A stretch of DNA of 64,000 nt from a virus: positions 1 to 64,000 of the IMG/VR virus record IMGVR_UViG_3300044910_000908; one strand, given 5' to 3'. Within the stretch, counting starts at the first letter, position 1, and each line of letters starts with the position of its first letter. The translations under genes were made by a program, and so were the position numbers. Positions 10,666-31,361 of the stretch are shown here, piece by piece. Under the pieces are notes generated by a model, which saw nothing but the letters and a program-made list of their open reading frames with translations, made no database searches and was not told the DNA's origin.

Positions 10666-11595
10666 TTATATTCTCTCAAGATTAATAAATAACGCAGCTA
10701 AATTTATGTGGGGATGGGCAACTAATGAATGCTTATATAAGTGGTCCGCAATAACAACAATTGCTGATTGTTCTTTAGATAAATCTTTTTTGAATTGTGG
10801 AACTTTATTAATATTAGAATAAAGGAAATTAAAAACTTCATCATATTCATCTGGAGCAATTTGTTCGCAAACAATTTTACGAGCAGATGAGAAATCACCA
10901 GCTTCCAAATAATCTAATAATTTAAGTTTATAATCATCAGTTGAAACAGTTTCCCCATCTGGCCTAATCAATTTACCATTTTGAGAGTATTGCTGTAATA
11001 ATTGAACAACTTTACGAATATCAGGATATGCAGATTTAACAATTTTTTCAAATAAATCAACATCATCAATTTCTACATTCTCTTTTTCTAATATTTCAGC
11101 AGCATAAATTAGAACTTGGTCAAAATTTGGTGCTAAAAATTGATATTCCTGAAATCTTGATTTTAATGATGGGATAATTTTATTAAGATAATTAGTAGTT
11201 GTAATAAAACGGCATGTATCAGAATTATCCTCAATTGTCATTCTTAAACTTTCTTGAGCAGCAGGAGATAATCGATTGAACTCTTCTAATTGAACTATTT
11301 TAAAATTACCCAATGGCATTGTACTTGCAAATCGTTCAATACGTTCTCGCATTGCATCAATACCATTTTCAGAAGATGCATTTATCCGAATAACATCAGC
11401 ATCATGAACACCTAATTCAAAAACTAATGCTTTACTTAAAGTAGTTTTTCCTGTTCCTTGTAATCCTGCAAAAATTAAATTTGGAGGATTACCTTCTTTT
11501 ACAATTTTCTTAAAAAGTTTTTTTACATCATCTGATTTAAAAATAATGTCATCTATTTTTTTTGGCCGATATTTTTCTACCCATAATTGAGTCAT
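10666..11595 (-). CDS. Clamp-loader ATPase subunit (gp44/RFC-small)
   Basis: LWVEKYRPK, GLQGTGKTT, INAS, LEE (Walker B), LKSRF. Confidence 0.95.
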   Translation of the reverse strand: MTQLWVEKYRPKKIDDIIFKSDDVKKLFKKIVKEGNPPNLIFAGLQGTGKTTLSKALVFELGVHDADVIRINASSENGIDAMRERIERFASTMPLGNFKIVQLEEFNRLSPAAQESLRMTIEDNSDTCRFITTTNYLNKIIPSLKSRFQEYQFLAPNFDQVLIYAAEILEKENVEIDDVDLFEKIVKSAYPDIRKVVQLLQQYSQNGKLIRPDGETVSTDDYKLKLLDYLEAGDFSSARKIVCEQIAPDEYDEVFNFLYSNINKVPQFKKDLSKEQSAIVVIADHLYKHSLVAHPHINLAALFINLERI

Positions 11596-15069: not shown

Positions 15070-15191
15070 GTTATATCTCCATTAATTTGGGCGAACCAAT
15101 TGTGGTTTTATTTTAACCCATTGATAAAAGTAGTTGAATTTTCATTTAAATTCAATTATATTTATCATAAGAAAAATCACACTTTTTCTCT

Positions 15192-16136
15192 TCAAAATTG
15201 AATAATGGATTTTTTATCTGGTTTATATAATTGAGTGCAAGAAAACATATCAATAAATGAATTAGGACTTTTAGCAATTGAATTGAGTTGATGTAGTCCT
15301 AAAAATCTATTGAATTGAAATAAATTAAATTTTCCGTGATTTTCAATACCATTAACAATAGTATCTTTAATTGCTTGTTTAATATCTTCTGGCTGACAAT
15401 CAAGGTCCATTAATAATTTATTTTCTTCAAATAATTCTTTAACTTTAAATGTTTCTTGAATATCTAATGTAGGATTATATTTAGTCCATTCTTCGTTCAT
15501 AAGTAATGTCATTTCATATGGATCAGAAAAAGCTTTTTCTAAACGTTTAGAACGAACATTTGGATATGCAGAGTTTACATTATCTCCCTTATCACCTCTA
15601 ATACATTTTTCAAAAATAAAGTATTCAGGATTTTCATGTGTTCTAGGAATACCTTTATCTGGATTAAGAAGAGTTACATTTTCATGTCTTAATAATTGAA
15701 TAAAATCTTTATCTCCTGATAAAACAGTAATATTATCGCCAGAAAAATGTTGAACATAACCTGCTATTAAATCATCACCTTCTACTAAATCATTTTGTAA
15801 ACAAATAATTGATGTATGTTCTCTTACTAATTGTTCAAATTGTTGCAAAACTTCAAATAAATGGTCCATTGAAGGATCCTTAATGCGATTTCCTTTATAT
15901 GGAATTTTAGAAACACATTTATTTGATTGCGTATAAGATTTTCGCCAGTTTCTTCCACCTTCAAATACAACAGCAATACTATCAGGTTTCAATTGTTTGT
16001 AGTATTTGTTTAAAGTTATTAGACATGAATGGAGTGCTAAACCAGCTTTTTCTTCAGTTGACCCAGTATAGGCACCTGAATGAGCTGAAGCTACTCGCCA
16101 GAATAAGTTTGGTACATCAACAATTAATTTATGCAT
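15192..16136 (-). CDS. rnh: RNase H / 5'-3' flap exonuclease (T4 rnh-like)
   Basis: LIVD, NWRK..Y, YKGNR, EGDDLIA, LSGDKDFIQL, GDKGDNV. Confidence 0.92.
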   Translation of the reverse strand: MHKLIVDVPNLFWRVASAHSGAYTGSTEEKAGLALHSCLITLNKYYKQLKPDSIAVVFEGGRNWRKSYTQSNKCVSKIPYKGNRIKDPSMDHLFEVLQQFEQLVREHTSIICLQNDLVEGDDLIAGYVQHFSGDNITVLSGDKDFIQLLRHENVTLLNPDKGIPRTHENPEYFIFEKCIRGDKGDNVNSAYPNVRSKRLEKAFSDPYEMTLLMNEEWTKYNPTLDIQETFKVKELFEENKLLMDLDCQPEDIKQAIKDTIVNGIENHGKFNLFQFNRFLGLHQLNSIAKSPNSFIDMFSCTQLYKPDKKSIIQF

Positions 16137-16377
16137 TCTTTTTTATTAATCCTGTTTCGTAAATAGTTTTAATTTCCCAAGCATAACCATACATAGAAGA
16201 CCAATGTTTTATTTGGCACTTCATGTATTTGGTTTTTGTCCTAAATTCTAAATCATGAAATCCTGGTGGTAAATCAAGAAATGGAATACTTTCTCTTCCT
16301 TTTCTCGTTTTAATTGTAGGAAAATAAGGATCTAGAATTTTCTTTTTGGGAAGTGATTTTACTTCAATAATCATCAT
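16129..16377 (-). CDS. Hypothetical protein
   Basis: Overlapping operon ORF. Confidence 0.5.
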   Translation of the reverse strand: MMIIEVKSLPKKKILDPYFPTIKTRKGRESIPFLDLPPGFHDLEFRTKTKYMKCQIKHWSSMYGYAWEIKTIYETGLIKKNA

Positions 16378-16726
16378 CGTCTATAATCTCAATTTTAACA
16401 TCATGTAAAGTTTCAAAATAACCAATCCAAAAAGGAGATAATAATTCGTGTTCTTTACCAGTATCATCAATTAGTAATTTAATACCATCTATATCTGATT
16501 TAAAGTTTCCAAAATCATAAAAATGAATATAAAAATCTGGAAATTGTAAATCTTTCAATTTACAATAAGAATGTCTTTCCTGATAAATTTTATAATGTTC
16601 TTTAATTCTTCGTTTATTTTCTTTAGCTATTTCATATGAAGACATTGGTATATCTAATAAATCATTAGCATCATGAGAACCAAAAGAATTGCCAGTTTTA
16701 TAATAAATTCTTATATCAAAATACAT
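16364..16726 (-). CDS. Hypothetical protein
   Basis: YKTGNSFG...FWIGYFETL. Confidence 0.6.
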   Translation of the reverse strand: MYFDIRIYYKTGNSFGSHDANDLLDIPMSSYEIAKENKRRIKEHYKIYQERHSYCKLKDLQFPDFYIHFYDFGNFKSDIDGIKLLIDDTGKEHELLSPFWIGYFETLHDVKIEIIDDDDY

Positions 16727-16729
16727 AGT

Positions 16730-17041
16730 TTATTTTCTTAATTGATTTAAATCGCTTTGTAAATTTGGGTGATAATCAGAAACAACTTCATCTTCTTCTA
16801 TTAATCCTTTTGGCATCATTAAAGTTCCAAAAAGAAATAATTCTACAGCTTCTTCAGGACTATCAGCGTCAAACCCTGCAGCTTTTATATTTTTTAAGAA
16901 AGCTTTATTCCAAGCCATTTTAAATTCAACTTGACCATCTTTATCAATACCTTTAGAAATAAATCTTACCCAAGGTTTTTTAGATCGACGCATTGATAAT
17001 TCTGACAAATATTCAAATAATTTTCCCATTTTACATATCAC
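16730..17041 (-). CDS. Hypothetical protein
   Basis: KPWV...WNKAF; in operon. Confidence 0.6.
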   Translation of the reverse strand: MICKMGKLFEYLSELSMRRSKKPWVRFISKGIDKDGQVEFKMAWNKAFLKNIKAAGFDADSPEEAVELFLFGTLMMPKGLIEEDEVVSDYHPNLQSDLNQLRK

Positions 17042-17375
17042 CCAATGTTTTTAAATTTTGAACATACATTTTTGCAAATGGTTGTAAATGTTCTTTAATC
17101 ATTGCTGCAAAAGGAAAAATCAATTCATCTGATAATTCACTACATAATGCTTCAATATTATTCATTCCATTTGCTAAATAATAACGAGCCATATCTTTAT
17201 CTATTATAGTTGTTCTAACTTTTCCAGCATATTTCATGTGTATAGATAAAATACGATCCTGTTCATTAAATTCTGTTTCAAATTCAGGTTTATATTTTTG
17301 CAAATCTGATTTTAATTGTTCATTAATTTCAAGTAAATTTTGAATATTAATATTAGCTCTTAAATCTTGTTCCAT
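17031..17375 (-). CDS. Hypothetical protein
   Basis: AGGAG SD; CATAAATA at 17431-17438. Confidence 0.6.
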   Translation of the reverse strand: MEQDLRANINIQNLLEINEQLKSDLQKYKPEFETEFNEQDRILSIHMKYAGKVRTTIIDKDMARYYLANGMNNIEALCSELSDELIFPFAAMIKEHLQPFAKMYVQNLKTLGDM

Positions 17376-17401
17376 TTGGTAATCTCCTAATTAGTATAAA
17401 A

Positions 17402-17429
17402 GTTCAGGGATAGTTTATTATCCCTGAAC
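17402..17429. terminator. Intrinsic terminator-like hairpin
   Basis: gttcagggata/tatccctgaac inverted repeat downstream of clamp gene. Confidence 0.65.
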
Positions 17430-17447
17430 ATATTTATGTTTGTAAAA

Positions 17448-18164
17448 TTAGGCTGAAGTTTGAGAGAACATTCTGACTTCATGGCCTGATACAGAGATTA
17501 AAGCAGATGCATCACAGAATGTAATAATGACTTCTGAACCTGCTTCATTTAAAGCTGTTTTTAGCAATGGAGCAAATGTATCTAATGGAAGATAAGATGA
17601 AGATGAAGATGCATCTGAACTTAATTCTTCATAAGGAGTTGTTAATGAAGTGCTGAATACATCTTGATTGTTATCAGTAAATTCAACTACAACTTCATTC
17701 TTTTTCTTAAATAGGAAAGCAACATTTTCAGCACCCATTGCTTTACCACCATTTAATAACATTAAAGCTTGTTCTTTACCAATAGTTACAGAACGAACTG
17801 GAGCATCATCAACATTTTTAGGATATTTAATTCGAGTTGGTGAAGTAGCTCTATATTGAACTGATGCATTAGAACCTTTGATATTTAGCATTGTAGCTTC
17901 ATTTTTAGCATTAACATCAATATCAATAGATACATCAGAACCAAATAGTGCTAATCTAGATTTTAGCATTTTCAATCTTGTTAAACCTAATTTAGCATCT
18001 GTATCTAATTCTGGTAAATTTTTATCACTTAAAATTAGACAAGTATTATTTGTATTAATACCACTGACTTTACCATCAGCAATAACAATAGCATCAATAC
18101 CCACTAATTCGCAAACATCTAAAATAGTTTTCAACGCAGTAATATCAGTTGCACTTAATTTCAT
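17448..18164 (-). CDS. Probable sliding clamp (gp45-like)
   Basis: 238 aa, begins MKLS..DI..LK like gp45, two beta-rich halves, directly downstream of DNA polymerase. Confidence 0.7.
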   Translation of the reverse strand: MKLSATDITALKTILDVCELVGIDAIVIADGKVSGINTNNTCLILSDKNLPELDTDAKLGLTRLKMLKSRLALFGSDVSIDIDVNAKNEATMLNIKGSNASVQYRATSPTRIKYPKNVDDAPVRSVTIGKEQALMLLNGGKAMGAENVAFLFKKKNEVVVEFTDNNQDVFSTSLTTPYEELSSDASSSSSYLPLDTFAPLLKTALNEAGSEVIITFCDASALISVSGHEVRMFSQTSA

Positions 18165-18212
18165 AATTTATATCTCCTTCGACTATTAAAAATAATATTA
18201 TATCACACTTTT

Positions 18213-19418
18213 TTAAAATTGAACAATAGAATTTACTCTAACTGTTTGAGGTGTAGGAACCTCTAATCCCATTGCTTCAAATACACCTAATAATTTTGCA
18301 TTAATCAATTTCTCCTCAGATACTTTCATATCTATTTCAAAATTCTCTAAAAACCATTGAGGAAATTTTGTTAAATCCGCAGGAAATGCAAGTGTTCTAA
18401 AACCAAATTCATTTTCCTTTAATTCAAATACTTTAACTTTATCACCATTCATTATTTTTGGATGAATACTATCTTTATATTCATCAATTAAAACATTATA
18501 ATTTACTGATGCTCTAATATGTCCAGGAACTGTCATCTTTCCTTTTCCATTCTTAGATTTCATTGGTTTACCATCTAATTCTGCAAAATAAGCTGAAGTA
18601 TATAATTCCAAATTATTAGCTGATTTAGATATTCCTAACAAAATTACTTCTGATGGTGAAATTTCTCCACTTGTAAATAATTCTTTTCGTTGTTCATTAA
18701 TATAAGTAGATACGTCAGGATAAGACATACCATCTAATATCCTATCAACAACATTCTTTAAAAACTTCTGAATGACTTTAGGTGTATCAGACTTCTTAAT
18801 TTCAGAACCCATAGCTTTCATTTTATTAGTTCTAAAACCTTCTAAATCTACAACTTTTGCCATATATTTTTTACGAGCTTGAAATAATGCTCGTTCAGCA
18901 ACAATCTCTCTTCCACAAACAATTAATTTATCATATCCTGGTTGACAACAAAATGCATCAATCATGAATTGAGGAAAACTTTCATTTATACCATCAGCAA
19001 CAGCATCAGCAATTAATACAGCTTCTTCAATATCATTTGCACCAGTAGCAAAATAGGCCGAATCGGTGTCAGAATAGATAATTGTATGATTGTTAGCATT
19101 GTAAATATTTTGTACAACTTTTTTATCTAAATTAAAACTCTTAACTAAATTGGCTTCTTCTCCTGATATTAAATATGCAGCAGTATTTGCCATATGAGAA
19201 GTAATAGCTCTACCTGTAAAAGTAACAGAAGCCCCAATCATCTCATCAACGCCCCATCGAAAACCTTTTGCTAGTAAAGCTCCATAAGCTGAATTTAAAG
19301 AAATCTTTTTTGTAAGTTGTAATAAATCATAATGTTCTACTTGATGTTTAGCTTCTTTAATTTGTTCAGCAATTTCAGGTGTATAAAATTTTCCATCTAT
19401 TTCAATTAATTTTGACAT
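18213..19418 (-). CDS. Family B DNA polymerase, C-terminal half (fingers/palm/thumb)
   Basis: Motif B KKISLNSAYG, SVTFTGR, motif C YSDTDS, RKKY, MGSEIKKSDTP; no exonuclease domain or motif A. Confidence 0.93.
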   Translation of the reverse strand: MSKLIEIDGKFYTPEIAEQIKEAKHQVEHYDLLQLTKKISLNSAYGALLAKGFRWGVDEMIGASVTFTGRAITSHMANTAAYLISGEEANLVKSFNLDKKVVQNIYNANNHTIIYSDTDSAYFATGANDIEEAVLIADAVADGINESFPQFMIDAFCCQPGYDKLIVCGREIVAERALFQARKKYMAKVVDLEGFRTNKMKAMGSEIKKSDTPKVIQKFLKNVVDRILDGMSYPDVSTYINEQRKELFTSGEISPSEVILLGISKSANNLELYTSAYFAELDGKPMKSKNGKGKMTVPGHIRASVNYNVLIDEYKDSIHPKIMNGDKVKVFELKENEFGFRTLAFPADLTKFPQWFLENFEIDMKVSEEKLINAKLLGVFEAMGLEVPTPQTVRVNSIVQF

Positions 19419-19563
19419 AATTCTCCCATATTTTAATATTATTCTATTATATCATAATTTATTTGATTTGTAAATAATTACATGTCACAGAATTACTTCA
19501 TACAGTTCTAAACATATTCTCATCAATAATCTGGAATATGCATTTAAGTTCAAAGCGATTTTA

Positions 19564-20097
19564 TTAATCTCTAACAACAATAACGTCTGGAATAGTGTGA
19601 ACTAAATGATTAACAGCAACAAAATCAGTATCAACACCTGTTAAGTCATGGAGATATTTTAATGCTTTTAATAATTGTTCTTTACCATGTTCAGAGTTTA
19701 CAACAATTTCATAAATTTCTAATGGTTCAGCAACTTGATAATTATATTTTTTTGAATATCGTTTTAATCCACTAGGATATTTAATTCCTTCAAACAGTAA
19801 TGTTTCAGCCCAACGAGGATACTGTTCTTCATCTAAAATAACCTGCAAAACTTGAGAAATAACATTACTATGTGTAATTTCTTTATCAAAAAAAGTATAA
19901 TTACTTTTTGATATTTGTATTGCTAAATCATGCAAAGCAAGATTATTGCCTAATTGTTTATCATATGTTTTTTCTTTTGGAGAACAGTATGAAACGCCAA
20001 AAAATAAATTACCATTTATGATTTGAGAAGCAATAGTTATTACACCATTTTTTTCAGCTTGCCGATGTCCCAATCTTGAAATTTTTACGTTACCCAT
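19564..20097 (-). CDS. Hypothetical protein
   Basis: GAGG SD; CSPKEKTYDKQLG pattern. Confidence 0.6.
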   Translation of the reverse strand: MGNVKISRLGHRQAEKNGVITIASQIINGNLFFGVSYCSPKEKTYDKQLGNNLALHDLAIQISKSNYTFFDKEITHSNVISQVLQVILDEEQYPRWAETLLFEGIKYPSGLKRYSKKYNYQVAEPLEIYEIVVNSEHGKEQLLKALKYLHDLTGVDTDFVAVNHLVHTIPDVIVVRD

Positions 20098-20116
20098 TTT
20101 ATATTTCCTCTGTTTA

Positions 20117-20620
20117 TTAATTATCTAATATTGTATCACTGCTATGTTTACAACCTTCATAATAACCATTGCAATAATTTTCTCGTTGTATATCTTTTAT
20201 TAATTGTTTTAATTCTTTTACACAATCAGTTGAATTACTAATTTTAACATTATTATCATATAAAAATTGAATAATTTCTGCATGTGTAACAACTTTATAT
20301 TCTGGTTGCGTCAATATTAAAGAAAAATCACATCCTTGCCCACCCAATCCAGCGTATTCAATCGTTACTTCATTATCAAATATATTAAGAATATCACTGA
20401 AGAATTGATTTGCATTTTGTTCATCTAAACAACATTTTTGAACAGCAATTTCAAATGAAAATCCACTTTCCATTAAATGTAAAGTATGATAAATGCAACA
20501 AAATTTTAAAAATACTGTAGCATCATCCCAAAATTCTTTCCAAGCATCCCAATCTTCTTCTGTAATATTAGGGTCAAATGTTAATGAATATTTTAAAGGA
20601 GTATTAATTAATAATTTCAT
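20117..20620 (-). CDS. Hypothetical protein
   Basis: 167-aa ORF. Confidence 0.55.
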   Translation of the reverse strand: MKLLINTPLKYSLTFDPNITEEDWDAWKEFWDDATVFLKFCCIYHTLHLMESGFSFEIAVQKCCLDEQNANQFFSDILNIFDNEVTIEYAGLGGQGCDFSLILTQPEYKVVTHAEIIQFLYDNNVKISNSTDCVKELKQLIKDIQRENYCNGYYEGCKHSSDTILDN

Positions 20621-20819
20621 CTATTTTTTAATCTTGTTAATACATCAACATTATTATTCATAATTATAGTTAACAAATCAATACACAATTCTTCATATTC
20701 TTCTTTTTCAGAAGAAGAAATAATTTTATTATCAATTTTTTGACGAAGTTCAATATACCTGTCGACTTGTTCTTTTTGAATATTATTAATCATGTTATTG
20801 GGTTCCTTTATAAGAAAGA

Positions 20820-20848
20820 TTAGGACTATTATAACATAATAGTCCTAA
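20820..20848. terminator. Intrinsic terminator-like hairpin
   Basis: ttaggactatta/taatagtcctaa inverted repeat downstream of vWA gene. Confidence 0.55.
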
Positions 20849-20866
20849 AATTGAAACAATTATTTT

Positions 20867-21952
20867 TTAGAAATTTTCCCAATAGATAACATCTGTTCCT
20901 ACTGGTAGAATTCTATTAACACTGGTAGATTGAACAAAAACTTTGAAATTAGAATGGTCACCAGGTCTAACTCGAACATCAGAATATTTAGGTAATCCAA
21001 TCATATCTCTAGCAACATCACCAGAATAAACATGTTTAGATGTTTTATCTTGAATAAGAATTAATTTATTTGCTTGGATTTTATTTTCTTTTTTAACTAA
21101 TTCATAAAATGAAGCTCCACGTTTCATAGAACGGCCCAATTTATGTTCTACAAAGTCTTTAATTGCGTGACCTTCTGCAGCAGTTTGAACTGTCCATTGT
21201 AGAATTTCTGAAGAAATATCAGTTAATACAGATTTAACTTCTGTAAGTGATACTTTATCAAGTGAAGTATAAAATGAAGAAGTTGAAGTTGCACCAGTTG
21301 CACGACTTCTGAAATAACCACCAATTGCTTGAGTTGTTACTTGAGAAGCTTGGTCAAGACCTTTAGTTGTTTGTTCCCATTCCTGAATATTGCCTTCAAA
21401 AATATCTAATGTTTTAGCTAATTTTTTACCATATCCTTTAGGAACTCGAAATACAAATGACCATCGATCTGTTGCGTGTAATTGTTTGATTTTACTAGCT
21501 AAAGTTATTGCATTCCATTTAATTGAAGCATTTTCTTCACCATCTGTAATAATCATCAGAAGAAATGATGTATTGATATCAGATGCTTCAGGTAATGCTT
21601 CAAACATTTCAATCAATTCACCAACGCTATCATAAAGTGGTGTTCCTCTACCATTAGCTTCATAGTTGCTTTCTGGAATTGGTTTTAAAACAGTGACAGA
21701 TGAATTAATGATTTCTCGTTTAACAGTAGCTGACGCACCAGCACCACAATTAACAACTGATACAATAACATCTTGGTTATGTTCTATTGCATTTTGTTTA
21801 ATACTTGCTATATTGGTATTGTAATCTCTAGCTGCTGCTTTAGTGATACCTCTCATTGAGGCGCTATGGTCCAATGAAAAGCCGATGAAAGTTTTGATAT
21901 TAGGTTGATTTTCCATAAAATTCTCCAAAAAGTATAAAGTTATTTTTCTCAT
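20867..21952 (-). CDS. von Willebrand A domain protein (start probably MENQP)
   Basis: MIDAS DHSASM, GTPLYD, ITDGEENAS. Confidence 0.85.
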   Translation of the reverse strand: MRKITLYFLENFMENQPNIKTFIGFSLDHSASMRGITKAAARDYNTNIASIKQNAIEHNQDVIVSVVNCGAGASATVKREIINSSVTVLKPIPESNYEANGRGTPLYDSVGELIEMFEALPEASDINTSFLLMIITDGEENASIKWNAITLASKIKQLHATDRWSFVFRVPKGYGKKLAKTLDIFEGNIQEWEQTTKGLDQASQVTTQAIGGYFRSRATGATSTSSFYTSLDKVSLTEVKSVLTDISSEILQWTVQTAAEGHAIKDFVEHKLGRSMKRGASFYELVKKENKIQANKLILIQDKTSKHVYSGDVARDMIGLPKYSDVRVRPGDHSNFKVFVQSTSVNRILPVGTDVIYWENF

Positions 21953-22002
21953 AAAATTAGAAGGTTTTTAATCCTTCTAATTTATTTATAAAAAATATTA
22001 TA

Positions 22003-22503
22003 TCACATTTTTGAAGAATGTAAATAATTTAAAATATCAAATTTAATTTTTGTCATTTCCCAATCACCTGTATGTAAAATACCATTTCCACCCGCTTTAT
22101 CCCATTCTTTAATATTCGTTTCTGCATCATCAATTAAAATATCACCTTTTGTATTAATCCAATGCTTTTTATTTCTTCCGCCTAATACAGTATGAACTTG
22201 AATATCAAAAGATAAATTTAATTTAACCCATTCTTTTTTATCATCTACTGCAGATAATAATTGTTGAGTTGGCAATGGAATAGCTGTTAAAACAAAAATA
22301 TCATATTCATTTTTAAAAGACCAAATATAATCAAAGAATTCTTTAGCTCCAGGTAATACATCTAAATGCAAAAATAAATTAGGAACTAATTCTAAACTAC
22401 TCCAAGAAGTATGCGGAGAATAAGGTTGTCCAGTATGTTCTTTTACAAATTTATGGAAATCAGCAAAACATCCATCAAGATCTAATGCAATTCTTCGTTT
22501 CAT
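22003..22503 (-). CDS. HAD 5'(3')-deoxyribonucleotidase
   Basis: LDLDGCFADF, VLTA, K..W, ILIDD..NI.EW..AGG.GILH. Confidence 0.9.
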   Translation of the reverse strand: MKRRIALDLDGCFADFHKFVKEHTGQPYSPHTSWSSLELVPNLFLHLDVLPGAKEFFDYIWSFKNEYDIFVLTAIPLPTQQLLSAVDDKKEWVKLNLSFDIQVHTVLGGRNKKHWINTKGDILIDDAETNIKEWDKAGGNGILHTGDWEMTKIKFDILNYLHSSKM

Positions 22504-22703
22504 TTCATTTGTTCCTCTAATTTTTTATTAATTTCAGCAGCATATTCATGATAATCTGAGTATGGCAAATAATATTCTATTACTTTTAAAAATGCAGGAA
22601 TATATTCTAAATCTTTATCAGCATCTCCTTTATATAAAGACAATTGTGTTTTAATATCTTTTTTTAAATTTTCAACTATAACACCATCAATATAATTCAT
22701 CAT
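22500..22703 (-). CDS. Hypothetical protein
   Basis: AGGAG SD. Confidence 0.55.
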   Translation of the reverse strand: MMNYIDGVIVENLKKDIKTQLSLYKGDADKDLEYIPAFLKVIEYYLPYSDYHEYAAEINKKLEEQMK

Positions 22704-22717
22704 AAATTCTCCTATTA

Positions 22718-23257
22718 TTAAGATAATAATCCATTAAGAGAAACACAACCATTTGGCAATACATAAGTATTTGATTGTGTTACTATTTCCCATGTTTGGT
22801 GCAAAGGTTTTATTACTTCTATTTTATCAACTTTTAAATAACTTTGTATAGTTTGAATAATTTCTTCTTGATTATTTCTGATATGAGTTAAATGAACTAT
22901 TTCATCACCTTCAGAAAGATTTCTAATTTTAATGAAATCATCTTCTCTTGAGGGATAATGTGCAAGTAGTTTATGGTCTCCAGTGAAACCATATTCGGAA
23001 TCGTCTTCAAATACAACTTTATAGATAGTAGTTAAACCATTATAAAAAACATGTTCAACTAATTCATCACCATCTTCTCCAATTACATAAATTGGTTGAG
23101 GTAATTCATAAATGCGTTTAGATAATTCTGAAAATTGACAATTTTGAAATTCAAAATTTAATTCTCTAAATAATTGAACAATACTAATAGCTCTACTATC
23201 AGCCAAATTTAATTTATTACAACAATCATATAAAGCACTTGTTCCACTAGCTTGCAT
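22718..23257 (-). CDS. Free-standing HINT (intein-like) domain protein
   Basis: Block A-like ALYD...LADSRAISIVQL, block B FTGDHKLL, IRNLSEGDEI, blocks F/G TWEIVT..NTYVLPNGCVSLN. Confidence 0.75.
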   Translation of the reverse strand: MQASGTSALYDCCNKLNLADSRAISIVQLFRELNFEFQNCQFSELSKRIYELPQPIYVIGEDGDELVEHVFYNGLTTIYKVVFEDDSEYGFTGDHKLLAHYPSREDDFIKIRNLSEGDEIVHLTHIRNNQEEIIQTIQSYLKVDKIEVIKPLHQTWEIVTQSNTYVLPNGCVSLNGLLS

Positions 23258-23273
23258 AAGTATCCTCTAGTTA

Positions 23274-24323
23274 TTAAAGAAATTTGGAAAAATCAATATC
23301 AGAAATGTCATTTACAATTGAATTAGATAGATAACTACTAATTTCAGTTTCTTGAGGAGCAACTTGAACATTACTAGAATTAAAATGTTTTTCAATCCAT
23401 GGTAATGGATGACTAATTTTTGCATTTTCAGAAGATAAACCGAGAGTTTTTAATTGTTTTGGTAATAGATAACCATCAATATAAGAAGTCAAAATTTCCT
23501 CATTTAAACCAATAATAGAACCATCTTTAAATAAATGTTGTGCCCAAATAATTTCTTGTTCAGCAGCGGATTTGAAAATATTTTTAGCTTTTTCTCTATT
23601 ATCTCCTATAATTTGAATAAATTCTGGGTCATCTTTAGGAAGTAATTTCAATGTATGCTGAACAAATGCTAAATGTTGAATTTCATCTCTAGCGATTAAT
23701 TTTACAATTTTTCCAGAACCTTCTACTTTAGCTCTTTCAACGAATGAAAATGTTGATGCAAATGACACATAAAAACGAATTGCTTCTAATGCATTAGCCG
23801 CTATTAATGCTAGATATAAATTTTCCTTATTAGGATTATTCACCATTTGATCATAGACTTTCGTGACATCATTTGCACAATCAGCTATTTCTTTTATATT
23901 AGGCATGTCATCTATAACAACTTTAGGGTCATTATAAATTGCTCTCAAAATATAAGTATAAGACATTGAATGAATACTTTCCATGAAAGACCACGTTAAT
24001 AAACAATTTTCCATGGATGGATCTGTACAATGTGGCAAAAATACTAACGCTGGAGCTCTTCCTTGAATGCTATCTAACAAAATCTGTCTTTTTAGATTTT
24101 CAGTAAAAACAAATTGTTCAACATCAGTTAATGAATTAAATGATCTTTTTTCTTGGCTCATATCTATTTCATTTGGGCGCCAGAAAAAACTTTGCATTTT
24201 TTCATTTAATTTATCTAAAATTTCATATCTTGTAATCTCATATCGAGAAATACCATGACCACATTCTCCAAAAAATAATTTATCTGGATGAACTGACATT
24301 GTAAAAACTGAATTATTTGGCAT
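23274..24323 (-). CDS. nrdB: Ribonucleotide reductase class Ia beta subunit
   Basis: FFWRPNEI, LLDSIQGR, ESIHSMSY, EAIRFYVSF, RDEIQH, VAPQETEISSY. Confidence 0.97.
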   Translation of the reverse strand: MPNNSVFTMSVHPDKLFFGECGHGISRYEITRYEILDKLNEKMQSFFWRPNEIDMSQEKRSFNSLTDVEQFVFTENLKRQILLDSIQGRAPALVFLPHCTDPSMENCLLTWSFMESIHSMSYTYILRAIYNDPKVVIDDMPNIKEIADCANDVTKVYDQMVNNPNKENLYLALIAANALEAIRFYVSFASTFSFVERAKVEGSGKIVKLIARDEIQHLAFVQHTLKLLPKDDPEFIQIIGDNREKAKNIFKSAAEQEIIWAQHLFKDGSIIGLNEEILTSYIDGYLLPKQLKTLGLSSENAKISHPLPWIEKHFNSSNVQVAPQETEISSYLSNSIVNDISDIDFSKFL

Positions 24324-24341
24324 ATTATTTTCTCCTTATTA

Positions 24342-26600
24342 TTAAACTACACAAGCACCTGATTTACAACCACCTTCTTCAATATTATCAGAAGAACCAT
24401 CATTAACTTGATTGTAATACATAGTACACATTCCCATTTTATATGCAAATAATAAATCCTCAATCAATCTTGACATTTTAATTTCACCTTTAGAAGGGTC
24501 ATACGAAGTGTTGCATGAAATAAATTGATCATTATATTTCTGAAATACTGCAGTAGTTTTCAAGTAATCTTTACTATCAACATTCCACAATGTTTCATAT
24601 AAATGATTTAATTTGTTATATTCAGGAACAACTTGTGGTAATACTCCATCTTTAGAACCTTTAATACTAATTAAATCTCTAGGAGGTTCAATACCATTTG
24701 TCTCATTAGAAATTTGAGATGATGTTTCACTTGGAAAAATTGTTGATAATGTTGCATTTCTAATACCATATTTTTTCAAATCTTCTTTTAATTCATCCCA
24801 TGGCATTAATGGAGCATTAACTGGAATTTTATTTAAATCTCTCGGAACAATACCATCATGATATTTTGTTCTTAATTCAATAGAACCAAATTCTTTTGCT
24901 AATTGATTAGATGCTTGAATTAAATAAAAATTCTGTTTCTCAATCATTGTTTCAGTCGCAAGTAATGCTTCATCTGTACCCCATTGTAATCTTCCTTTTG
25001 CTAACCAATGAGCATAACCAATTAAACCAATGCCTAATGGACGACATAATTTAGTAGCTCTTTCAGCAGCATCAATTGGATATTCTTGATAATCTAATAA
25101 AGCATCTAAAGCTCTAACACCCATTTCACAACAATCTTTTAAAATTCTTTCTTCTTTTTCAGATAAATTCTTACTAAATTTACCCCAATTAGTAGCTAAT
25201 AATGTACATAAATTTAATAATGAATTACCATCTCCAAGCGGAGTTGTTCGCTGTCCAATTTCCGTACATAAATTAGTCATATAAACTGGTTCATAATAAG
25301 GTGTTTGATAATTGACATTATCAGCATTAAAAATATAAATACGTCCAGTTTCATATCTTTCATTCATTAATTTTGTAAAGTATTCAAATGCAGGAATAGT
25401 TTTCTTTACAACTTTATTTGAGTTTTCATATTTTTCATATAATTCTTCAAATTTTTCTAAATCTGGAGAATAAAAAGCTTCATATAAATCTGGAACTTCT
25501 TCAGGGCTAAATAATGTAATATTTCCACCTGTGATTAATCTTTTATACATTGTTCCATTAAGAGCAACAACATAATCTAAAGTTCTAATACGAGTTTCTT
25601 CAGTTCCTTTATTGTTTTTTAATTCAATTAATTTTTCAAATTCTAAATGCCATCCAGGATAATTAATAGAAGCTGAAGCCGACCTAATTCCACCTTGCGA
25701 TACTGCTCTTAAAGAAGAATTCATTAATTTTAAATAAGGAATAACACCAGTTGTAATAGCATCTCCTTGTCTAACTTGTTGTCCTTCAGCACGTAATCTT
25801 CCAATATTTAAACCAATACCAGCTTTTCTTGAAGCATAATCAATAATAGCTGCTGATGTAGCTTTAATAGAATTTAAGCTATCACCACAATCCATTAATG
25901 TGCAAGAAGAAAATTGTTTTACATTAGTTCTTAATCCAGCCATAATAGGTGTAGGAAGAGAAATATAATGTTGGCTAACCAAATCATAAAATTTCTTGAT
26001 GTATCCCATACGAGTAGCAATTGGGTACGCGCCAAATAATAATGCTGGAACTAAAATATAAGGGAATTGAAATGTTTCATATACATGTTTAGTTTTTCTA
26101 TTTTGAACTAAATATTTTTTACGCATTTGTTCTGAACCTGCATAACGAAATAAATCATCTCTATTATGGTCAATCATATCATTTAAAATATTAAATTCTT
26201 CTTCATTATAAAATTCTAATAATTCTTTAGTATAAACACCTAATGCCACATTTTTCTTAACAACATCATATAAATGAGGTGGTGTATTAGAACCAAATGC
26301 TTCTTTACGAATAGATAACCAATTTAATCTAGCAGCAACATGATCATAATTTGGAGTATCTTCATTAATTAAATCTGCAGATGCTTTAATTAAAGTTTGG
26401 TGAATTGAAGAAGTTTTAATATTTGGAACGAAATGTGGATTAGCTGTCATTTCAATTTGAGAAACAGATACGCCTTTAATTGGTGGAAAAATATCATCTC
26501 CATTACATGCCCAATTAATCACTTGATGAATTTTAGAAAGATCTAATAGTTCTTTTGTTCCATTTCGTTTAGTAACAAATATATTACTGGTTTGAGTCAT
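24342..26600 (-). CDS. nrdA: Ribonucleotide reductase class Ia alpha subunit
   Basis: ATP-cone VTKRNG, QFSSC, TNLCTEI, PSETSS, MYY, C-terminal CKSGAC. Confidence 0.97.
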   Translation of the reverse strand: MTQTSNIFVTKRNGTKELLDLSKIHQVINWACNGDDIFPPIKGVSVSQIEMTANPHFVPNIKTSSIHQTLIKASADLINEDTPNYDHVAARLNWLSIRKEAFGSNTPPHLYDVVKKNVALGVYTKELLEFYNEEEFNILNDMIDHNRDDLFRYAGSEQMRKKYLVQNRKTKHVYETFQFPYILVPALLFGAYPIATRMGYIKKFYDLVSQHYISLPTPIMAGLRTNVKQFSSCTLMDCGDSLNSIKATSAAIIDYASRKAGIGLNIGRLRAEGQQVRQGDAITTGVIPYLKLMNSSLRAVSQGGIRSASASINYPGWHLEFEKLIELKNNKGTEETRIRTLDYVVALNGTMYKRLITGGNITLFSPEEVPDLYEAFYSPDLEKFEELYEKYENSNKVVKKTIPAFEYFTKLMNERYETGRIYIFNADNVNYQTPYYEPVYMTNLCTEIGQRTTPLGDGNSLLNLCTLLATNWGKFSKNLSEKEERILKDCCEMGVRALDALLDYQEYPIDAAERATKLCRPLGIGLIGYAHWLAKGRLQWGTDEALLATETMIEKQNFYLIQASNQLAKEFGSIELRTKYHDGIVPRDLNKIPVNAPLMPWDELKEDLKKYGIRNATLSTIFPSETSSQISNETNGIEPPRDLISIKGSKDGVLPQVVPEYNKLNHLYETLWNVDSKDYLKTTAVFQKYNDQFISCNTSYDPSKGEIKMSRLIEDLLFAYKMGMCTMYYNQVNDGSSDNIEEGGCKSGACVV

Positions 26601-26626
26601 ATAAATTCCTTATAATTAAATAATTT

Positions 26627-27931
26627 TTAAAATTGAATAATTTGCTTTTGTTTGTTAATATTACAAAATTCAGCATCGTTTGTGATTTGCGAAATAGGAG
26701 CCATGGCTCTTTTTAAAGCGGTTGTTTTATTTGTTTTATTTCTTTCAAAAACATTAAATTGGCAACAACTTATTTCTATACCAAAGGTAGTAAAACGACC
26801 TAATTCTGAAGCTTCTTTTAAATGGATTTCAGCTTGAGTATTTCCAGCTATTTCAAAAAAATCTTCTTGATGATTTCTAATAGCTATAATATATTTCATC
26901 ATTGCTTCAGTATTAATTGGCATATCAGGAAATAGTTTTTTTAATGTTGCAGTAGCACCAGGACCAGCAACAACATAATCAGCATTTTCATCTAAATTTC
27001 CATGTGTTAAACTTTTGTCTTTATTTTGTAATTTTTTAAAATCATCATAATATTCAGCATCTATTAATTCAGAACTACCAATTCCTGGCATCCTAGCTAA
27101 GTTTGAAGAAAAATGATATCCATAATAATTTCCAATTCCTCTTTCAAGAGTTAAAAAATTAAAAGATTGTTCCATTGTTGGTTTATTCTTAAAAAATGGC
27201 ACCCATTTTTTAGATAAATATTTGACCCAATGAATCATATCAGATGGACGCATTTTTCTTTCTTGGTGTTCTTTTAATAAATTTAATTCAGTGATTAATT
27301 TATTACTGTTATTAATATTTAGTATGTCAATAGATGATGGATTTTCTCTACAATAATTTCTAGCAGCTATTTGCAAACTTGTTCTTAATTCTGTTGTTCC
27401 CCATATTTTTTCTTTATTAGCAAAAGCTTTTTCTACATTAGACATTAATGTAAATTCATAATCCATATCTTTTTCTAATAAATCAAAATTGATATATTTT
27501 GAATTAGTTGGAATTAAATAATTTAAATCTTCAGCAGTTCCTGTAATAATATCTAAAGTTCTTGCTGGTCCATAAAATTTTACAATTGCAGAATTTATTA
27601 GTTTATCCTCAAAACTAACATTATCTTCATAATATAAATGGGAATTTAACCAAATAATTTCATCATGAAATGATCTATTTGGATGGAAGTATGGAACAGG
27701 TTTATTATCAACAACAAAACCATATCCAAATCCTTTTTGATGTTTATATAATTTTGAAATATAATCTTCAAAAGTTTTAGCTTGCTGTTTATTTATCCTT
27801 ACTTCCCATTCCCGCTTATTGAATTCTTTTATAAAATTTGCTAATTGTTTTTTTACTGTTTTATCTGCAAATGACAATATTTTTTCATCAGACATATTTT
27901 TAATATCGTTGTTAGAAAGTAATGATGCCAT
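26627..27931 (-). CDS. aGPT-Pplase1 / amino-acid:DNA-transferase-like DNA base-hypermodification enzyme
   Basis: YFHPNRSFHDEIIWL, HhH-like RGIGNYYGYHFSSNL, DENADYVVAGPGA, IEISCCQF match the family pattern F.N..R..D / G.G.F....Dl / GPGA / lCEf; C-terminal IIQF. Confidence 0.75.
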   Translation of the reverse strand: MASLLSNNDIKNMSDEKILSFADKTVKKQLANFIKEFNKREWEVRINKQQAKTFEDYISKLYKHQKGFGYGFVVDNKPVPYFHPNRSFHDEIIWLNSHLYYEDNVSFEDKLINSAIVKFYGPARTLDIITGTAEDLNYLIPTNSKYINFDLLEKDMDYEFTLMSNVEKAFANKEKIWGTTELRTSLQIAARNYCRENPSSIDILNINNSNKLITELNLLKEHQERKMRPSDMIHWVKYLSKKWVPFFKNKPTMEQSFNFLTLERGIGNYYGYHFSSNLARMPGIGSSELIDAEYYDDFKKLQNKDKSLTHGNLDENADYVVAGPGATATLKKLFPDMPINTEAMMKYIIAIRNHQEDFFEIAGNTQAEIHLKEASELGRFTTFGIEISCCQFNVFERNKTNKTTALKRAMAPISQITNDAEFCNINKQKQIIQF

Positions 27932-28685
27932 TTATTTTTTTTCTCCGTTTCCAAATTCTAGGTAAACTATTAAAACCTTTATGAACGAGTTCAAATTCTT
28001 CGTTTATTATTTGTTTTGCTAATCGTTGGGTTTGTCTACCAGTTAAAATAGTAGTATCATATTTATATTTTTCAAAATGGCCATAACACGAAGGTGAACT
28101 AAAGCTTGCAGTTTCTATTAAATAGTTAGTTGACAAATCCATACAACTTTTTATAAAATCAAATGGGTCCTCAAAATGTTCAAAGGTTTCTAAACACAAT
28201 ACAACATCAAACTTTTCATCTTTTGGAAATTCATAAAAATTAATATTTTTATTATCAGAATGTAAAGAACACCATTTTTCACAACAAGAAATCTGATGGT
28301 CTACATTATTGAATGTATAAACTTGTTTAAAATTTGATTGCAATAATTTTTCAGTTGTAAATCCTAAACCATTAAAAATATCAATAATAGAATATTCAGA
28401 TAAATCAATATTATTTTTCTTAAAATAATTATTGAGTGCCCAAATACTATTATTTGAAGATACAAAAAAGCACCAAATACATTCTAATAAGTAATCTGTG
28501 GTAGAATAGATAGAAAAATCTGTTCTTTTAGAATTTACCCATAATTCACCTAATTTATCTGAATTTATTTTTAATGCATTATAAAGTTCTTTTTTTGAAT
28601 TAGAATTTAATAAAATTTCATTATCTTTTAATTCCGGAACACAAGCAATAATATTATCTATAAAATTTTTATGACTAAGCTTCAT
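27912..28685 (-). CDS. Class I SAM-dependent methyltransferase
   Basis: IIDIFNGLGF (motif I variant), FDVVLCLETFEHFEDP; C-terminal IITF. Confidence 0.8.
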   Translation of the reverse strand: MKLSHKNFIDNIIACVPELKDNEILLNSNSKKELYNALKINSDKLGELWVNSKRTDFSIYSTTDYLLECIWCFFVSSNNSIWALNNYFKKNNIDLSEYSIIDIFNGLGFTTEKLLQSNFKQVYTFNNVDHQISCCEKWCSLHSDNKNINFYEFPKDEKFDVVLCLETFEHFEDPFDFIKSCMDLSTNYLIETASFSSPSCYGHFEKYKYDTTILTGRQTQRLAKQIINEEFELVHKGFNSLPRIWKRRKKINGIITF

Positions 28686-29073
28686 GTCTTACATTTTCCT
28701 TCTCAGTTAAATTATGATCTAAATGTATTACATTAAGCCAAGAACCACAATTTTGCTCAATTATATTTTTTTGAATAGGGTCATCTTCAAAATGACAATT
28801 AATTTTAATTCCAATATTTTTCAATTTATTCAAAACTTGAGCTTTATGCATTCCAGAACTTTCTCTAGTTTTTTCATGAAATTGCAAATTGTTAAAAAAT
28901 ACTTTATTAAAAATATTTCTTTTTTCTAGCATTGAAATTGTTTCAACGTATTCTTCAAAAGACCTACCAGTAATAATAATATCATTAGGACCTGGATAAA
29001 CTCCTTCGATAGAGTTATTAATAAAAATAACTCCATCGATATCGTAACTATTAATAGGGGAATGATTAAACAT
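28675..29073 (-). CDS. Small capless HAD phosphatase (candidate inositol-phosphate phosphatase)
   Basis: YDIDGV, ITGRS, HKA, HFEDD. Confidence 0.8.
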   Translation of the reverse strand: MFNHSPINSYDIDGVIFINNSIEGVYPGPNDIIITGRSFEEYVETISMLEKRNIFNKVFFNNLQFHEKTRESSGMHKAQVLNKLKNIGIKINCHFEDDPIQKNIIEQNCGSWLNVIHLDHNLTEKENVRHEA

Positions 29074-30285
29074 TTATTCTCCTATCAATCTCAAATAATC
29101 CATTCCACCGCTATTATATTCATCCCATGCAAATTTAATTGCATCTTCAGGAGTTGTTTGTTTACTAGTAATATCTGTTAATTGACGATTAGCTAATGCT
29201 TCGCATTCTTTATAAGATAAATCATAAGTTAATTGTTTAGGCGGAGATTTTTGAGTAAACGCAGAAGGTCCTCTTAAACAACCAATAATTCCCATTTCTT
29301 TTGCAACTTTAATATATCTTAAAGCATCAATTACAACACCACTAGAATTTTCTGAATCTTGAACAGATAATTTAACATCTACAGTAATTGGAGCATCTCC
29401 AAAACCTCTAAGATGTAAATTAAAGTAAGCAATTTTATTATCTTTTAAATAAGGAATAAAAGTTGAAGGACCAGCAAATAAAGCATCGTCATCAACAGGA
29501 ATTCCTCTTAAATCATTTTGTGCTCTAATAACATTTTCTTTTGATACTTTTTTATGTTTTAATCTTGTTTGAACCATCATATTATTAAAATCGGTATTAC
29601 CTCCAACGTTTAATTGTTGATGATAATCAACTATCATACCTCGACTAAATGCTAGTTCTTGTAACATTTGAGATAAAATAGAAGCTCCAAATTGAGATTT
29701 CATATCAGAACCAATATAAGGAATGCCAGCACTAATAAATTTTTCTTCCCATTTAGGATGATTTAATGTTAATACAGGAATACAATTCAAAAATGAAATT
29801 TTATGTTCAATACATTTTTCAGCCCACCATTCAGTTGCATTTTGAGAACCTACTGGCAAGTAATTGATAATAATTTCAACGCCTGTTTCTTTTAGAATTT
29901 TATCAATATCACAAACATCTTCATTAGAAATTCTGAAACCCATTCTTTCTGGTTGAGTTTGCATATAATCAGAAACACCGTCTAATACTGGACCCATATT
30001 AACAATTGGGCCATCAGGAACATCTTTACAAAATACTCTAGCGCAATTAGGTTGAGCAAAAATAGCTTCGCCTACTGGACGACCAACTTTTCTTCTATCA
30101 ACATCAAAAGCTGCTACTACTTGAATATCAGCAGGATGATAACCTCCAATTCTGTCAAACATAACACCGGGAATAGAATTTCCTTCAGCATCTTCATCAT
30201 GATCTTTATAATATTCAAGGCCTTGATAAAGAGAAGAAAAACAATTACCAACACCAACTACACAAACTTTAATTTTTTTTGACAT
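29074..30285 (-). CDS. ino1: myo-inositol-1-phosphate synthase
   Basis: VGVGNCFSSLYQG, AAFDVD..KVG, NYLPVGS, GSDMKSQFGA, QLNVGGNTDF.NM, KKVSK, DSENSSGVVID, FTQKSPP. Confidence 0.95.
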   Translation of the reverse strand: MSKKIKVCVVGVGNCFSSLYQGLEYYKDHDEDAEGNSIPGVMFDRIGGYHPADIQVVAAFDVDRRKVGRPVGEAIFAQPNCARVFCKDVPDGPIVNMGPVLDGVSDYMQTQPERMGFRISNEDVCDIDKILKETGVEIIINYLPVGSQNATEWWAEKCIEHKISFLNCIPVLTLNHPKWEEKFISAGIPYIGSDMKSQFGASILSQMLQELAFSRGMIVDYHQQLNVGGNTDFNNMMVQTRLKHKKVSKENVIRAQNDLRGIPVDDDALFAGPSTFIPYLKDNKIAYFNLHLRGFGDAPITVDVKLSVQDSENSSGVVIDALRYIKVAKEMGIIGCLRGPSAFTQKSPPKQLTYDLSYKECEALANRQLTDITSKQTTPEDAIKFAWDEYNSGGMDYLRLIGE

Positions 30286-30323
30286 ATATAATCCTCTTTT
30301 TGTTTAAAACATTATTTACTTTT

Positions 30324-31361
30324 TTAAAATGTTACAATTTTATTAAATTGCTTAATTTCTGGTATATTAGGTTTATTATTCCAATAATCCCATCTATGAT
30401 ATAGAGGTGCTAAATGAACATTTTTTGGACGTTCCATATAAGTGTTCATATAATCTATAGGTGATATTATAAACATTTCTTGTGTTCTTGTAAACAGTTT
30501 CCAATTATTTTTTTCACATAATTGTTTTAATTTATTGTTAAAATATTCCATGATAATAGTTCTTTCTTTTTGAGAACCATAAAAAGGAGTATTTTCAAAA
30601 AATCCAGTTTTTGGAATTCTTCTAGATTCATCTTCAATAGGTAATAATTCAACTAATTCAATATTTTGAATATTTAAATCTAATAATTGGCGTTCATATT
30701 CTAATAATATTTCATCTATTTCTTTTTTTGGATCAGAATTTCTAAGTATATGATGTCTTATATCTATATTACCCCAATAACAAGTAATATAATTTAATTG
30801 AGTAATATCTATATTATTATCTTCTATTTCTTTTTTAATTGTTTTTCTTAAAACACCTTTTAAAGTTCTTCCATCTTTTCTCACAACCATTGCATTTGAA
30901 TAAAATGTTGAAAAACTATGTGAATCACCAATTATCAATTTATCAGTATTAGGATTTAAATAATATTCTTTAACTTCTAAACATTTTTTTGAAATTGCTT
31001 CCCAATCTATAGCTTTCCAATAATCATCTGCTGTTTTTCTACTTGAACATAGAAATCCATAATCAGGCATTGGCATATCTAATGATATTAATTTTGCTGA
31101 AGTTGTTCCAATTCTTTCATAAAATTTAGCGTTTTCTATTGTAGCACCACCAAATAAATTTAAAGAACCTTTAAATTCCATTCCATGATATAAATAAATT
31201 TCGTCATAATTATTCCAATCTTCATTATTATGTAAGACTTCAACTTGTTTATTCAATTCTTTAGATAATTGACAAGCTCTTAAATGAGCCCATGCATTTT
31301 TATGAGAATATTTTGAATTAGTTAATTTTCCACTTACTAAATCTATAGCAATTTTAGTCAT
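30324..31361 (-). CDS. SGNH/GDSL-like protein with an extra N-terminal domain
   Basis: LIIGDSHS (block I), WGNIDIR (block III-like), MERPKNVHL (block V His); N-terminal SH..W and YHG..F.GSLNLFGG; C-terminal IVTF. Confidence 0.65.
   Translation of the reverse strand: MTKIAIDLVSGKLTNSKYSHKNAWAHLRACQLSKELNKQVEVLHNNEDWNNYDEIYLYHGMEFKGSLNLFGGATIENAKFYERIGTTSAKLISLDMPMPDYGFLCSSRKTADDYWKAIDWEAISKKCLEVKEYYLNPNTDKLIIGDSHSFSTFYSNAMVVRKDGRTLKGVLRKTIKKEIEDNNIDITQLNYITCYWGNIDIRHHILRNSDPKKEIDEILLEYERQLLDLNIQNIELVELLPIEDESRRIPKTGFFENTPFYGSQKERTIIMEYFNNKLKQLCEKNNWKLFTRTQEMFIISPIDYMNTYMERPKNVHLAPLYHRWDYWNNKPNIPEIKQFNKIVTF

Follow-up and report, generated by a model that had tools for sequence, protein, structure and literature searches.

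A C-terminal I-[IV]-[QT]-F peptide common to replication proteins and predicted DNA-modification enzymes of a probable giant phage: a candidate sliding-clamp tether

The first 64,000 nucleotides of the IMG/VR virus record IMGVR_UViG_3300044910_000908, referred to here as the window, are part of an 81,067 bp viral contig of 27% GC in which about 151 of 159 open reading frames (ORFs) lie on the minus strand. Our subject is a short peptide, I-[IV]-[QT]-F, that closes five proteins encoded on that strand between positions 15,192 and 31,361, two of them replication proteins and three of them members of a predicted DNA-modification cluster. The first is a 314-residue 5′-3′ exonuclease of the FEN family resembling T4 RNase H (15192..16136; Pfam 5_3_exonuc_N, E 7e-16; phrog_107, E 1e-43), which ends in ..DKKSIIQF, with the tail codons at 15195-15206. 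The second is the C-terminal half of a split family-B DNA polymerase (PolB; 401 residues, 18213..19418; Pfam DNA_pol_B, E 3e-16; phrog_262), ending in ..RVNSIVQF (tail codons 18216-18227). In the modification cluster, the peptide is found on a 434-residue HMUDK-helical or aGPT-Pplase-like protein with a predicted HhH-GPD-type fold (26627..27931; Pfam HMUDK_hel; here called Pplase-like), which ends in ..KQKQIIQF (26630-26641), on a 257-residue class-I S-adenosylmethionine (SAM) methyltransferase (27912..28685; Pfam Methyltransf_11, E 8e-6), which ends in ..KINGIITF (27915-27926), and on a 345-residue SGNH/GDSL-like protein (30324..31361; phrog_13881, E 2e-70), which ends in ..FNKIVTF (30327-30338). 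Direct reading of all five termini agrees with an earlier note on this DNA, which had described five nearly identical C-terminal tetrapeptides.

The tail is confined to these proteins: no further ORF of at least 40 codons ends in I[IV][QT]F on the whole contig, even with all 310 mechanically called ORFs included. Amino-acid frequencies of the contig predict 0.008 such C-termini among the 151 minus-strand ORFs, against five observed (Poisson probability of at least five, 2.5e-13); the margin is very large, even for a motif defined post hoc. Over the entire proteome the motif occurs nine times, five of them C-terminal, and it is not common across the contig. Chance or amino-acid composition is ruled out by this enrichment. 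A repeat or shared regulatory element at the level of DNA is likewise ruled out, because the tails use different synonymous codons (ATC/ATT, TTC/TTT, ACT/ACA, GTT/GTA) and their flanks are unrelated. Two enzymes of the same cluster, a HAD-like phosphatase (132 residues, 28675..29073, minus strand; phrog_415, E 2e-8) and a myo-inositol-1-phosphate synthase (MIPS; 403 residues, 29074..30285, minus strand; Pfam Inos-1-P_synth, E 3e-21), lack the tail, as the earlier note said, and the same holds for their orthologues; NrdA, NT5C and this genome's NrdB lack it as well. The observation that the methyltransferase keeps its tail where those codons overlap the start of the next gene also stands: the overlap extends 20 nt into the Pplase-like gene, across its start codon region and in a different frame.

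Aligned with the 900-residue polymerases of relatives, the polymerase ORF covers no more than their residues ~524-913, and an exonuclease or N-terminal PolB half was not found anywhere on the 81-kb contig. Split polymerases also occur in two relatives (L069 and L075) and in Aeromonas phage 44RR2.8t. Directly after the stop codons of the RNase H-like and polymerase genes stands AAAAGTGTGAT (15165-15191 and 18190-18212), which after the polymerase gene continues into TATAAT; it may be a promoter or regulatory element common to both genes.

Adjoining the polymerase gene is one for a 238-residue protein (17448..18164, minus strand) that had been put forward as the sliding clamp, an assignment borne out by structure prediction and profile search. 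Its AlphaFold2 model (pLDDT 92.7, pTM 0.88) has the two-domain beta-alpha-beta-beta-beta repeat fold expected of a PCNA/gp45-type clamp of ~230-260 residues. Foldseek returned at least 500 matches to this model in the PDB at E ≤ 0.001, all of those listed being PCNA or beta clamps; the best of the matches listed was 1rxm, A. fulgidus PCNA with a bound FEN-1 C-terminal peptide. The protein also matches a phage processivity factor family (phrog_223, E 8e-5), and a Pfam scan of it gave no match. Also encoded is a gp44-like clamp-loader subunit of 309 residues (10666..11595, minus strand; phrog_168, E 4e-77), and therefore the phage appears to load its own clamp. We presume that this clamp is the receptor of the tails. 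Its own residues 213-216 also read IITF, inside the chain and in what is predicted to be a beta strand; this is probably a coincidence.

The anatomy of the Pplase-like tail is that described for the clamp epitopes of T4. Across 17 aligned Pplase-like sequences the conserved domain closes with an invariant R-A-x-A-P-I-S (residues 408-414), which is followed by ~7-20 unconserved linker residues and then by the tail. The AlphaFold2 model of the Pplase-like protein is mostly confident over residues 1-413 and has pLDDT below 50 over residues 414-434, which are thus predicted to be disordered. Alignment and model agree in placing the peptide at the extreme C-terminus of a variable, flexible linker. 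The phage's own polymerase has the same peptide, NSIVQF, compared with IIQF, IITF and IVTF on the three enzymes; all five tails have a hydrophobic residue at position -3 and a single aromatic, the terminal F.

Conservation of the tail was followed through relatives of the replication genes. The nearest relative (L088) has a polymerase 90% identical to this one with an identical C-terminal end. Over 20 contigs of the clade that includes Ralstonia phage RsoM2USA have both polymerase and FEN ending in [ILM][ILVM]xF, the polymerases in SILEF, SLLEF, TIIEF, SIVQF or KLLSF and the FEN proteins in SLLEF, SLIEF, LLEF, LLDF, GLISF, KIIF and similar sequences. Even odd tails are matched within one genome, as in the polymerase/FEN pairs LMSF-ED with LMEL-SND and LLDWG with LLDF. 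In two contigs the genes for polymerase and clamp are separated by one for a 138-residue DUF488 protein (N3a subclade; L076:4441-4857 and L077:9536-9952). This protein ends in ..DSIIEF, a tail of the kind that the polymerase has in that lineage, and is a candidate further clamp client.

More telling is the behavior of the modification enzymes, for which 59 viral contigs with a MIPS-HAD-Pplase-SGNH cluster provided a sample. In four other lineages the Pplase-like and SGNH-like enzymes bear the tail of the local polymerase. One T4-like lineage follows the pattern (S/T)L(E/D)xFF, with polymerases ending in TLDDWF or TLEGFFS, Pplase-like proteins in SLESFFG, SLENFFG or SLENFLA, and SGNH-like proteins in SLESFF, SLDSFF or SLECFF. 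In Aeromonas phage 44RR2.8t, gp43B ends in NLFDMFDI, gp55 in NLDNFYEDEPET, and a fused SGNH-Pplase protein of 795 residues in SLDGLFAI. A second T4-like lineage, lineage C, follows x(S/T)xLF (polymerase STSLF, Pplase-like SSCLF, SGNH-like INTLF), and in a related giant phage, G010, the pattern is ΦIxF, with Φ a hydrophobic residue (polymerase TIIEF, SGNH-like PLIEF, HMUDK_hel protein QLIVF). When polymerase labels were permuted among seven genomes, only 8 of 5040 arrangements reached the observed summed similarity of the tails. MIPS and HAD orthologues had no polymerase-like tail in any lineage of the sample, and those of HAD end throughout in a conserved ..SKLVQK or similar sequence.

These patterns bear on whether the tail has anything to do with replication. 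Hydrophobic C-termini can serve as bacterial degrons, and the peptide might accordingly be recognized by a protease and so govern degradation, stability or timing, or be some other signal foreign to the replisome. The tail, however, tracks the polymerase of the phage and not the host, across lineages whose hosts and GC contents are very different, and it is retained on the replicative polymerase throughout a clade; we consider such a signal highly improbable.

Natural negative controls are provided by lineages that differ in their polymerase. A group of giant phages of 184-293 kb, one genome of which is complete (lineage D), has a DnaE-type polymerase and PolA and no PolB, and in these phages both enzymes are tailless. 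Similarly, in G007 the end of PolB is not hydrophobic and both enzymes again lack a tail. The SGNH-like protein of lineage D has neither tail nor extension. In place of a tail, the lineage D Pplase-like enzyme (L022:10001-11446 and L026:10001-11506) has a C-terminal extension of ~100 residues, for which a Pfam scan gave no match and which could be an alternative tether to DNA or to a beta clamp.

The earlier note also proposed that the tail could be used to find other replisome clients, and blind scans of two further genomes bore this out. In G010, which is complete (359,550 bp) and belongs to the same replisome clade, [ILVM][ILVM]xF closes seven ORFs where 1.65 are expected; among them are the polymerase, FEN (GLISF), and, with the tails given above, the adjacent SGNH-like protein (phrog_13881) and the HMUDK_hel-domain protein. 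In G012, a 234-kb genome of lineage C, LF closes seven ORFs where 1.2 would be expected. Besides polymerase and FEN these are RNase HII (Pfam, E 1e-35), the two modification enzymes (Pplase-like and SGNH-like), NrdB, and one protein of unassigned function. The G012 NrdB (161175-162152; L129:9175-10152) ends in ..EDDLF. The C-terminal tail of NrdB is the R1-binding peptide of the small subunit and thus a predictable false positive in scans for clamp tails.

The identity of the proteins recovered also helps to distinguish the clamp from other receptors. The tail could instead dock on a different hub of the replisome, such as the polymerase, a helicase or the gp32-like single-stranded DNA-binding protein (SSB; 41117-42043), or act as a general replication-factory signal. 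The contig does encode a gp32-like SSB, UvsX and a helicase, and in T4 the function of RNase H depends on gp32 to a greater extent than on gp45. Polymerase, FEN and RNase HII, on the other hand, are the classic clients that bind PCNA through a C-terminal peptide (PDB titles 1rxm and 3p83), and in every solved PCNA-type system it is the clamp that binds the hydrophobic or aromatic C-terminal peptides of these proteins (PDB titles; PMC2988020). Because the blind G012 scan recovers exactly this trio, the clamp is favored over any other hub, and the absence of tails where the replisome is of the DnaE type argues in the same direction. Docking elsewhere in the replisome thus appears unlikely.

What the tailed enzymes do is suggested by folds and gene fusions. 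The only Pfam family that the Pplase-like protein matches at E ≤ 0.01 is HMUDK_hel, the helical domain of 5-hydroxymethyldeoxyuridine (5-hmdU) DNA kinase, with a score of 28.9 bits where 25 is required. The match is confined to residues 312-402, and Pfam detected no kinase domain in the protein. Neither a profile of its family searched against PDB sequences nor a Foldseek search of its model against the PDB returned anything significant. In an exhaustive VIA-align search the model matched DUF2419 (Z 9.0) and the PaMx11 gp46 5-phosphomethyl-dU (5-PmdU) glycinyltransferase (8z2m; Z 8.9 over 227 residues, root-mean-square deviation 4.1), followed by about 18 HhH-GPD DNA glycosylases with Z of 5-7.5; these Z scores are middling for a helical protein, and the list is coherent. 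These matches are consistent with a DNA base-flipping enzyme. The SGNH-like protein matches the N-terminal half of phrog_17781, and the C-terminal half of that family is the Pplase-like protein. The two are fused as a single 795-residue protein in Aeromonas phage 44RR2.8t (ORF233c, L001:4900-7287) and in 18 other Aeromonas phages, and this fusion links them to each other. The fused gene adjoins a sodium:solute symporter gene. A Pfam scan of the 345-residue SGNH-like protein gave no match, and its SGNH identity is only a lead. The methyltransferase matches generic SAM-methyltransferase Pfam models only. Pfam identified no thymidylate-synthase-like hydroxymethylase and no 5-hmdU kinase domain on the contig.

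These assignments leave room for a different division of labor, in which the tail does bind the clamp and one or more of the tailed enzymes, chiefly the methyltransferase or the SGNH-like protein, has a small-molecule donor or a protein, instead of DNA, as its substrate and is co-localized only for substrate channeling, as in the idea of a T4 dNTP-synthetase complex. The matches of the methyltransferase to small-molecule-type models would suit this proposal, as would the lack of any homology of the SGNH-like protein to DNA enzymes in Pfam and other searches. Fusion of the SGNH-like protein to a putative base-flipping enzyme in Aeromonas phages tells against it, as does the fact that both carry the tail when they are separate; moreover, the true metabolite enzymes MIPS, HAD, NrdA and NT5C, together with this genome's NrdB, are tailless. 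We therefore think channeling quite unlikely to be what the tail is for.

We propose that I-[IV]-[QT]-F-COOH is a lineage-specific peptide for binding the sliding clamp that tethers DNA modification to replication, and we would put the probability of this at roughly three in four. Since the enzymes end as the polymerase and the flap nuclease do, and their tail shifts together with the polymerase tail from lineage to lineage, the three modification enzymes most likely ride the phage clamp on newly copied DNA. According to this model, the tail, which in polymerase and flap nuclease closes a short disordered linker and which recurs on three enzymes of the adjacent modification cluster (the putatively base-flipping Pplase-like protein, the SAM methyltransferase and the SGNH-like protein), would insert into a hydrophobic pocket of the PCNA-like clamp (17448-18164). 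Where clamps stay behind after replication, the modifying enzymes would gather on the nascent phage DNA, making base modification both fast and phage-specific, and MIPS and HAD would need no tether, as makers of a soluble donor moiety. The clamp-binding motif and the action on nascent DNA had both been proposed in the earlier note. All checks that we ran support them (clamp fold, loader, conservation, covariation and the predicted base-flipping fold); physical binding, the site of action on nascent DNA and the chemistry are what we infer from these lines of evidence.

Several observations weigh against this proposal. In T4 the equivalent peptide is hydrophobic and acidic; the core here is hydrophobic as well, but its flanks are K, N or Q and contain no acidic residue. 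The canonical PCNA-interacting peptide (PIP box), Q-x-x-[ILM]-x-x-[FY]-[FY], is not matched, since the conserved Gln (there is a Q at -6 only in the Pplase-like tail) and the second aromatic are absent, and the register of the tails is unlike that of the bacterial QL(S/D)LF motif. The tail is thus a variant type and not the T4 sequence motif itself. Conservation in orthologues holds for polymerase, FEN, Pplase-like and SGNH-like proteins and is not seen for the methyltransferase: its only detectable homologue, P0017 (46% identity), stops at ..IWKRKE, eight residues earlier, and has no tail, so that the methyltransferase tail looks like a recent add-on. The cluster occurs without tails in several lineages, and tethering is therefore not essential for catalysis. 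The single published claim that a phage modification enzyme binds its clamp, made for T4 alpha-glucosyltransferase and gp45 (ref. 20 of a 2025 preprint, through which we cite it: bioRxiv 10.64898/2025.12.06.692756), could be reproduced neither in vitro nor in vivo in that preprint, which used C-terminally His-tagged enzymes. Finally, the list of tailed clients is a partial one, because CheckV puts the completeness of the contig at 23% of a genome.

Modification of nearly every target base, at a pace that outruns host nucleases and yet spares host DNA, is not explained by the hypermodification pathways described so far, and a clamp tether would provide both speed and specificity. The tail is also evidence for action on DNA that is independent of homology, which is of value here for the SGNH-like protein and the methyltransferase, and the polymerase tail could serve as a genome-wide probe for DNA-acting enzymes of unassigned function. 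For uncultured phages the rule for listing clients is simple: take the tail of the polymerase and scan all C-termini, a procedure that works in G010 and G012. We lean, with less confidence, towards the broader proposition that every phage lineage with PolB and a PCNA/gp45-type clamp marks its clamp clients by a C-terminal tail of its own, and that hypermodification enzymes, here possibly for an inositol-derived modification, are regular members of the set. If so, base hypermodification in many phages would be the work of clamp-tethered enzymes on nascent DNA. Cultured T4-like Aeromonas phages, whose fused enzyme bears a T4-type tail, constitute a tractable experimental system. That C-terminal clamp epitopes are common to several clients is already known and is textbook knowledge for T4 and PCNA. 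To this the window adds a clade outside T4 whose motif is another one, a further set of enzymes (the MIPS cluster), and covariation of the same families across lineages with natural negative controls. The open-access papers and preprints that we searched contained no description of clamp tails on phage DNA-hypermodification enzymes and nothing relevant to an inositol-type modification of phage DNA.

The remaining content of the contig places these genes in a large genome. Its replication genes are closest to those of RsoM2USA, a 344-kb Ralstonia phage (polymerase 43% identical, clamp 27% identical), and similar to those of uncultured phages of 350-370 kb; the contig is therefore most likely a piece of a giant phage. 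In a megablast comparison of the region with isolated phages, the sole match was 40 nt in nrdB. Just downstream of nrdB (23274-24323), a 179-residue ORF (22718-23257) has a weak match to Intein_splicing (E 5e-4, below the cut-off) and may be an intein or Hint remnant. Other tailless proteins are an NAD-dependent DNA ligase (1644-3527), a Thg1-like tRNA-His guanylyltransferase (13347-14138), a protein with HD and P-loop kinase (Pnk-like) domains (43267-44364), and a Sir2-like protein (56354-57088). Just upstream of the modification cluster, with two small ORFs between, lies a homologue of the CBASS inhibitor Acb3 (31729-32493; Pfam PF25187, E 3e-34).

Comparison with known systems shows which parts of the proposal have precedents. 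Like the aGPT-Pplase and 5-hmdU DNA kinase enzymes of thymidine hypermodification, the 434-residue protein has a predicted helical base-flipping fold (Z 8.9 to PaMx11 gp46, PDB 8z2m) and an HMUDK_hel match. Unlike those enzymes, it has no sequence match to solved structures, its Pfam similarity being limited to HMUDK_hel, and no kinase domain was found in it; its partner genes also differ from those of the described thymidine pathways, being MIPS, HAD and the SGNH-like gene. The thymidine-hypermodification enzymes work post-replicatively on DNA, in a pathway whose description makes no mention of a clamp or the replisome (PMC8989533). The proposed interaction of T4 alpha-glucosyltransferase with gp45 is similar to ours in having a phage DNA-modifying enzyme work from the sliding clamp; no common tail motif was involved there, and the evidence here is a covarying sequence motif in place of a pull-down. 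Among cellular clamps, the clients of PCNA that use a PIP box likewise have the peptide at the extreme C-terminus of polymerase, flap nuclease and, as in lineage C, RNase HII, with a hydrophobic residue at -3 and an aromatic end. The phage tails differ in lacking a conserved Gln at -6, in having a single aromatic, and in belonging to phage proteins with another set of enzymes. Replication-coupled DNA modification has a precedent in DNMT1, which binds PCNA. For the nuclease, the earlier note had cited T4 RNase H as an established clamp partner; that enzyme is not known to attach through such a tail, and the better precedents are archaeal and eukaryotic FEN1 and RNase HII on PCNA (PDB titles). 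The closest parallel is that of T4 and RB69, in which gp43, gp55 and gp33 have C-terminal clamp epitopes that resemble one another, can be exchanged, and are borne on variable linkers (PMC2988020). As in that system, a short, hydrophobic and modular C-terminal peptide on a flexible linker is found here on the polymerase and on functionally unrelated clamp clients, and in T4-like lineages that have the MIPS cluster the Pplase-like and SGNH-like enzymes end in a T4-type (S/T)L(D/E)xFF. The differences are that the motif described here, I[IV][QT]F, is neutral to basic instead of acidic, that the PCNA-like clamp, which belongs to an RsoM2USA-like giant phage, is a distant one, and that the additional clients, which in T4 are transcription factors, are here enzymes of DNA modification.

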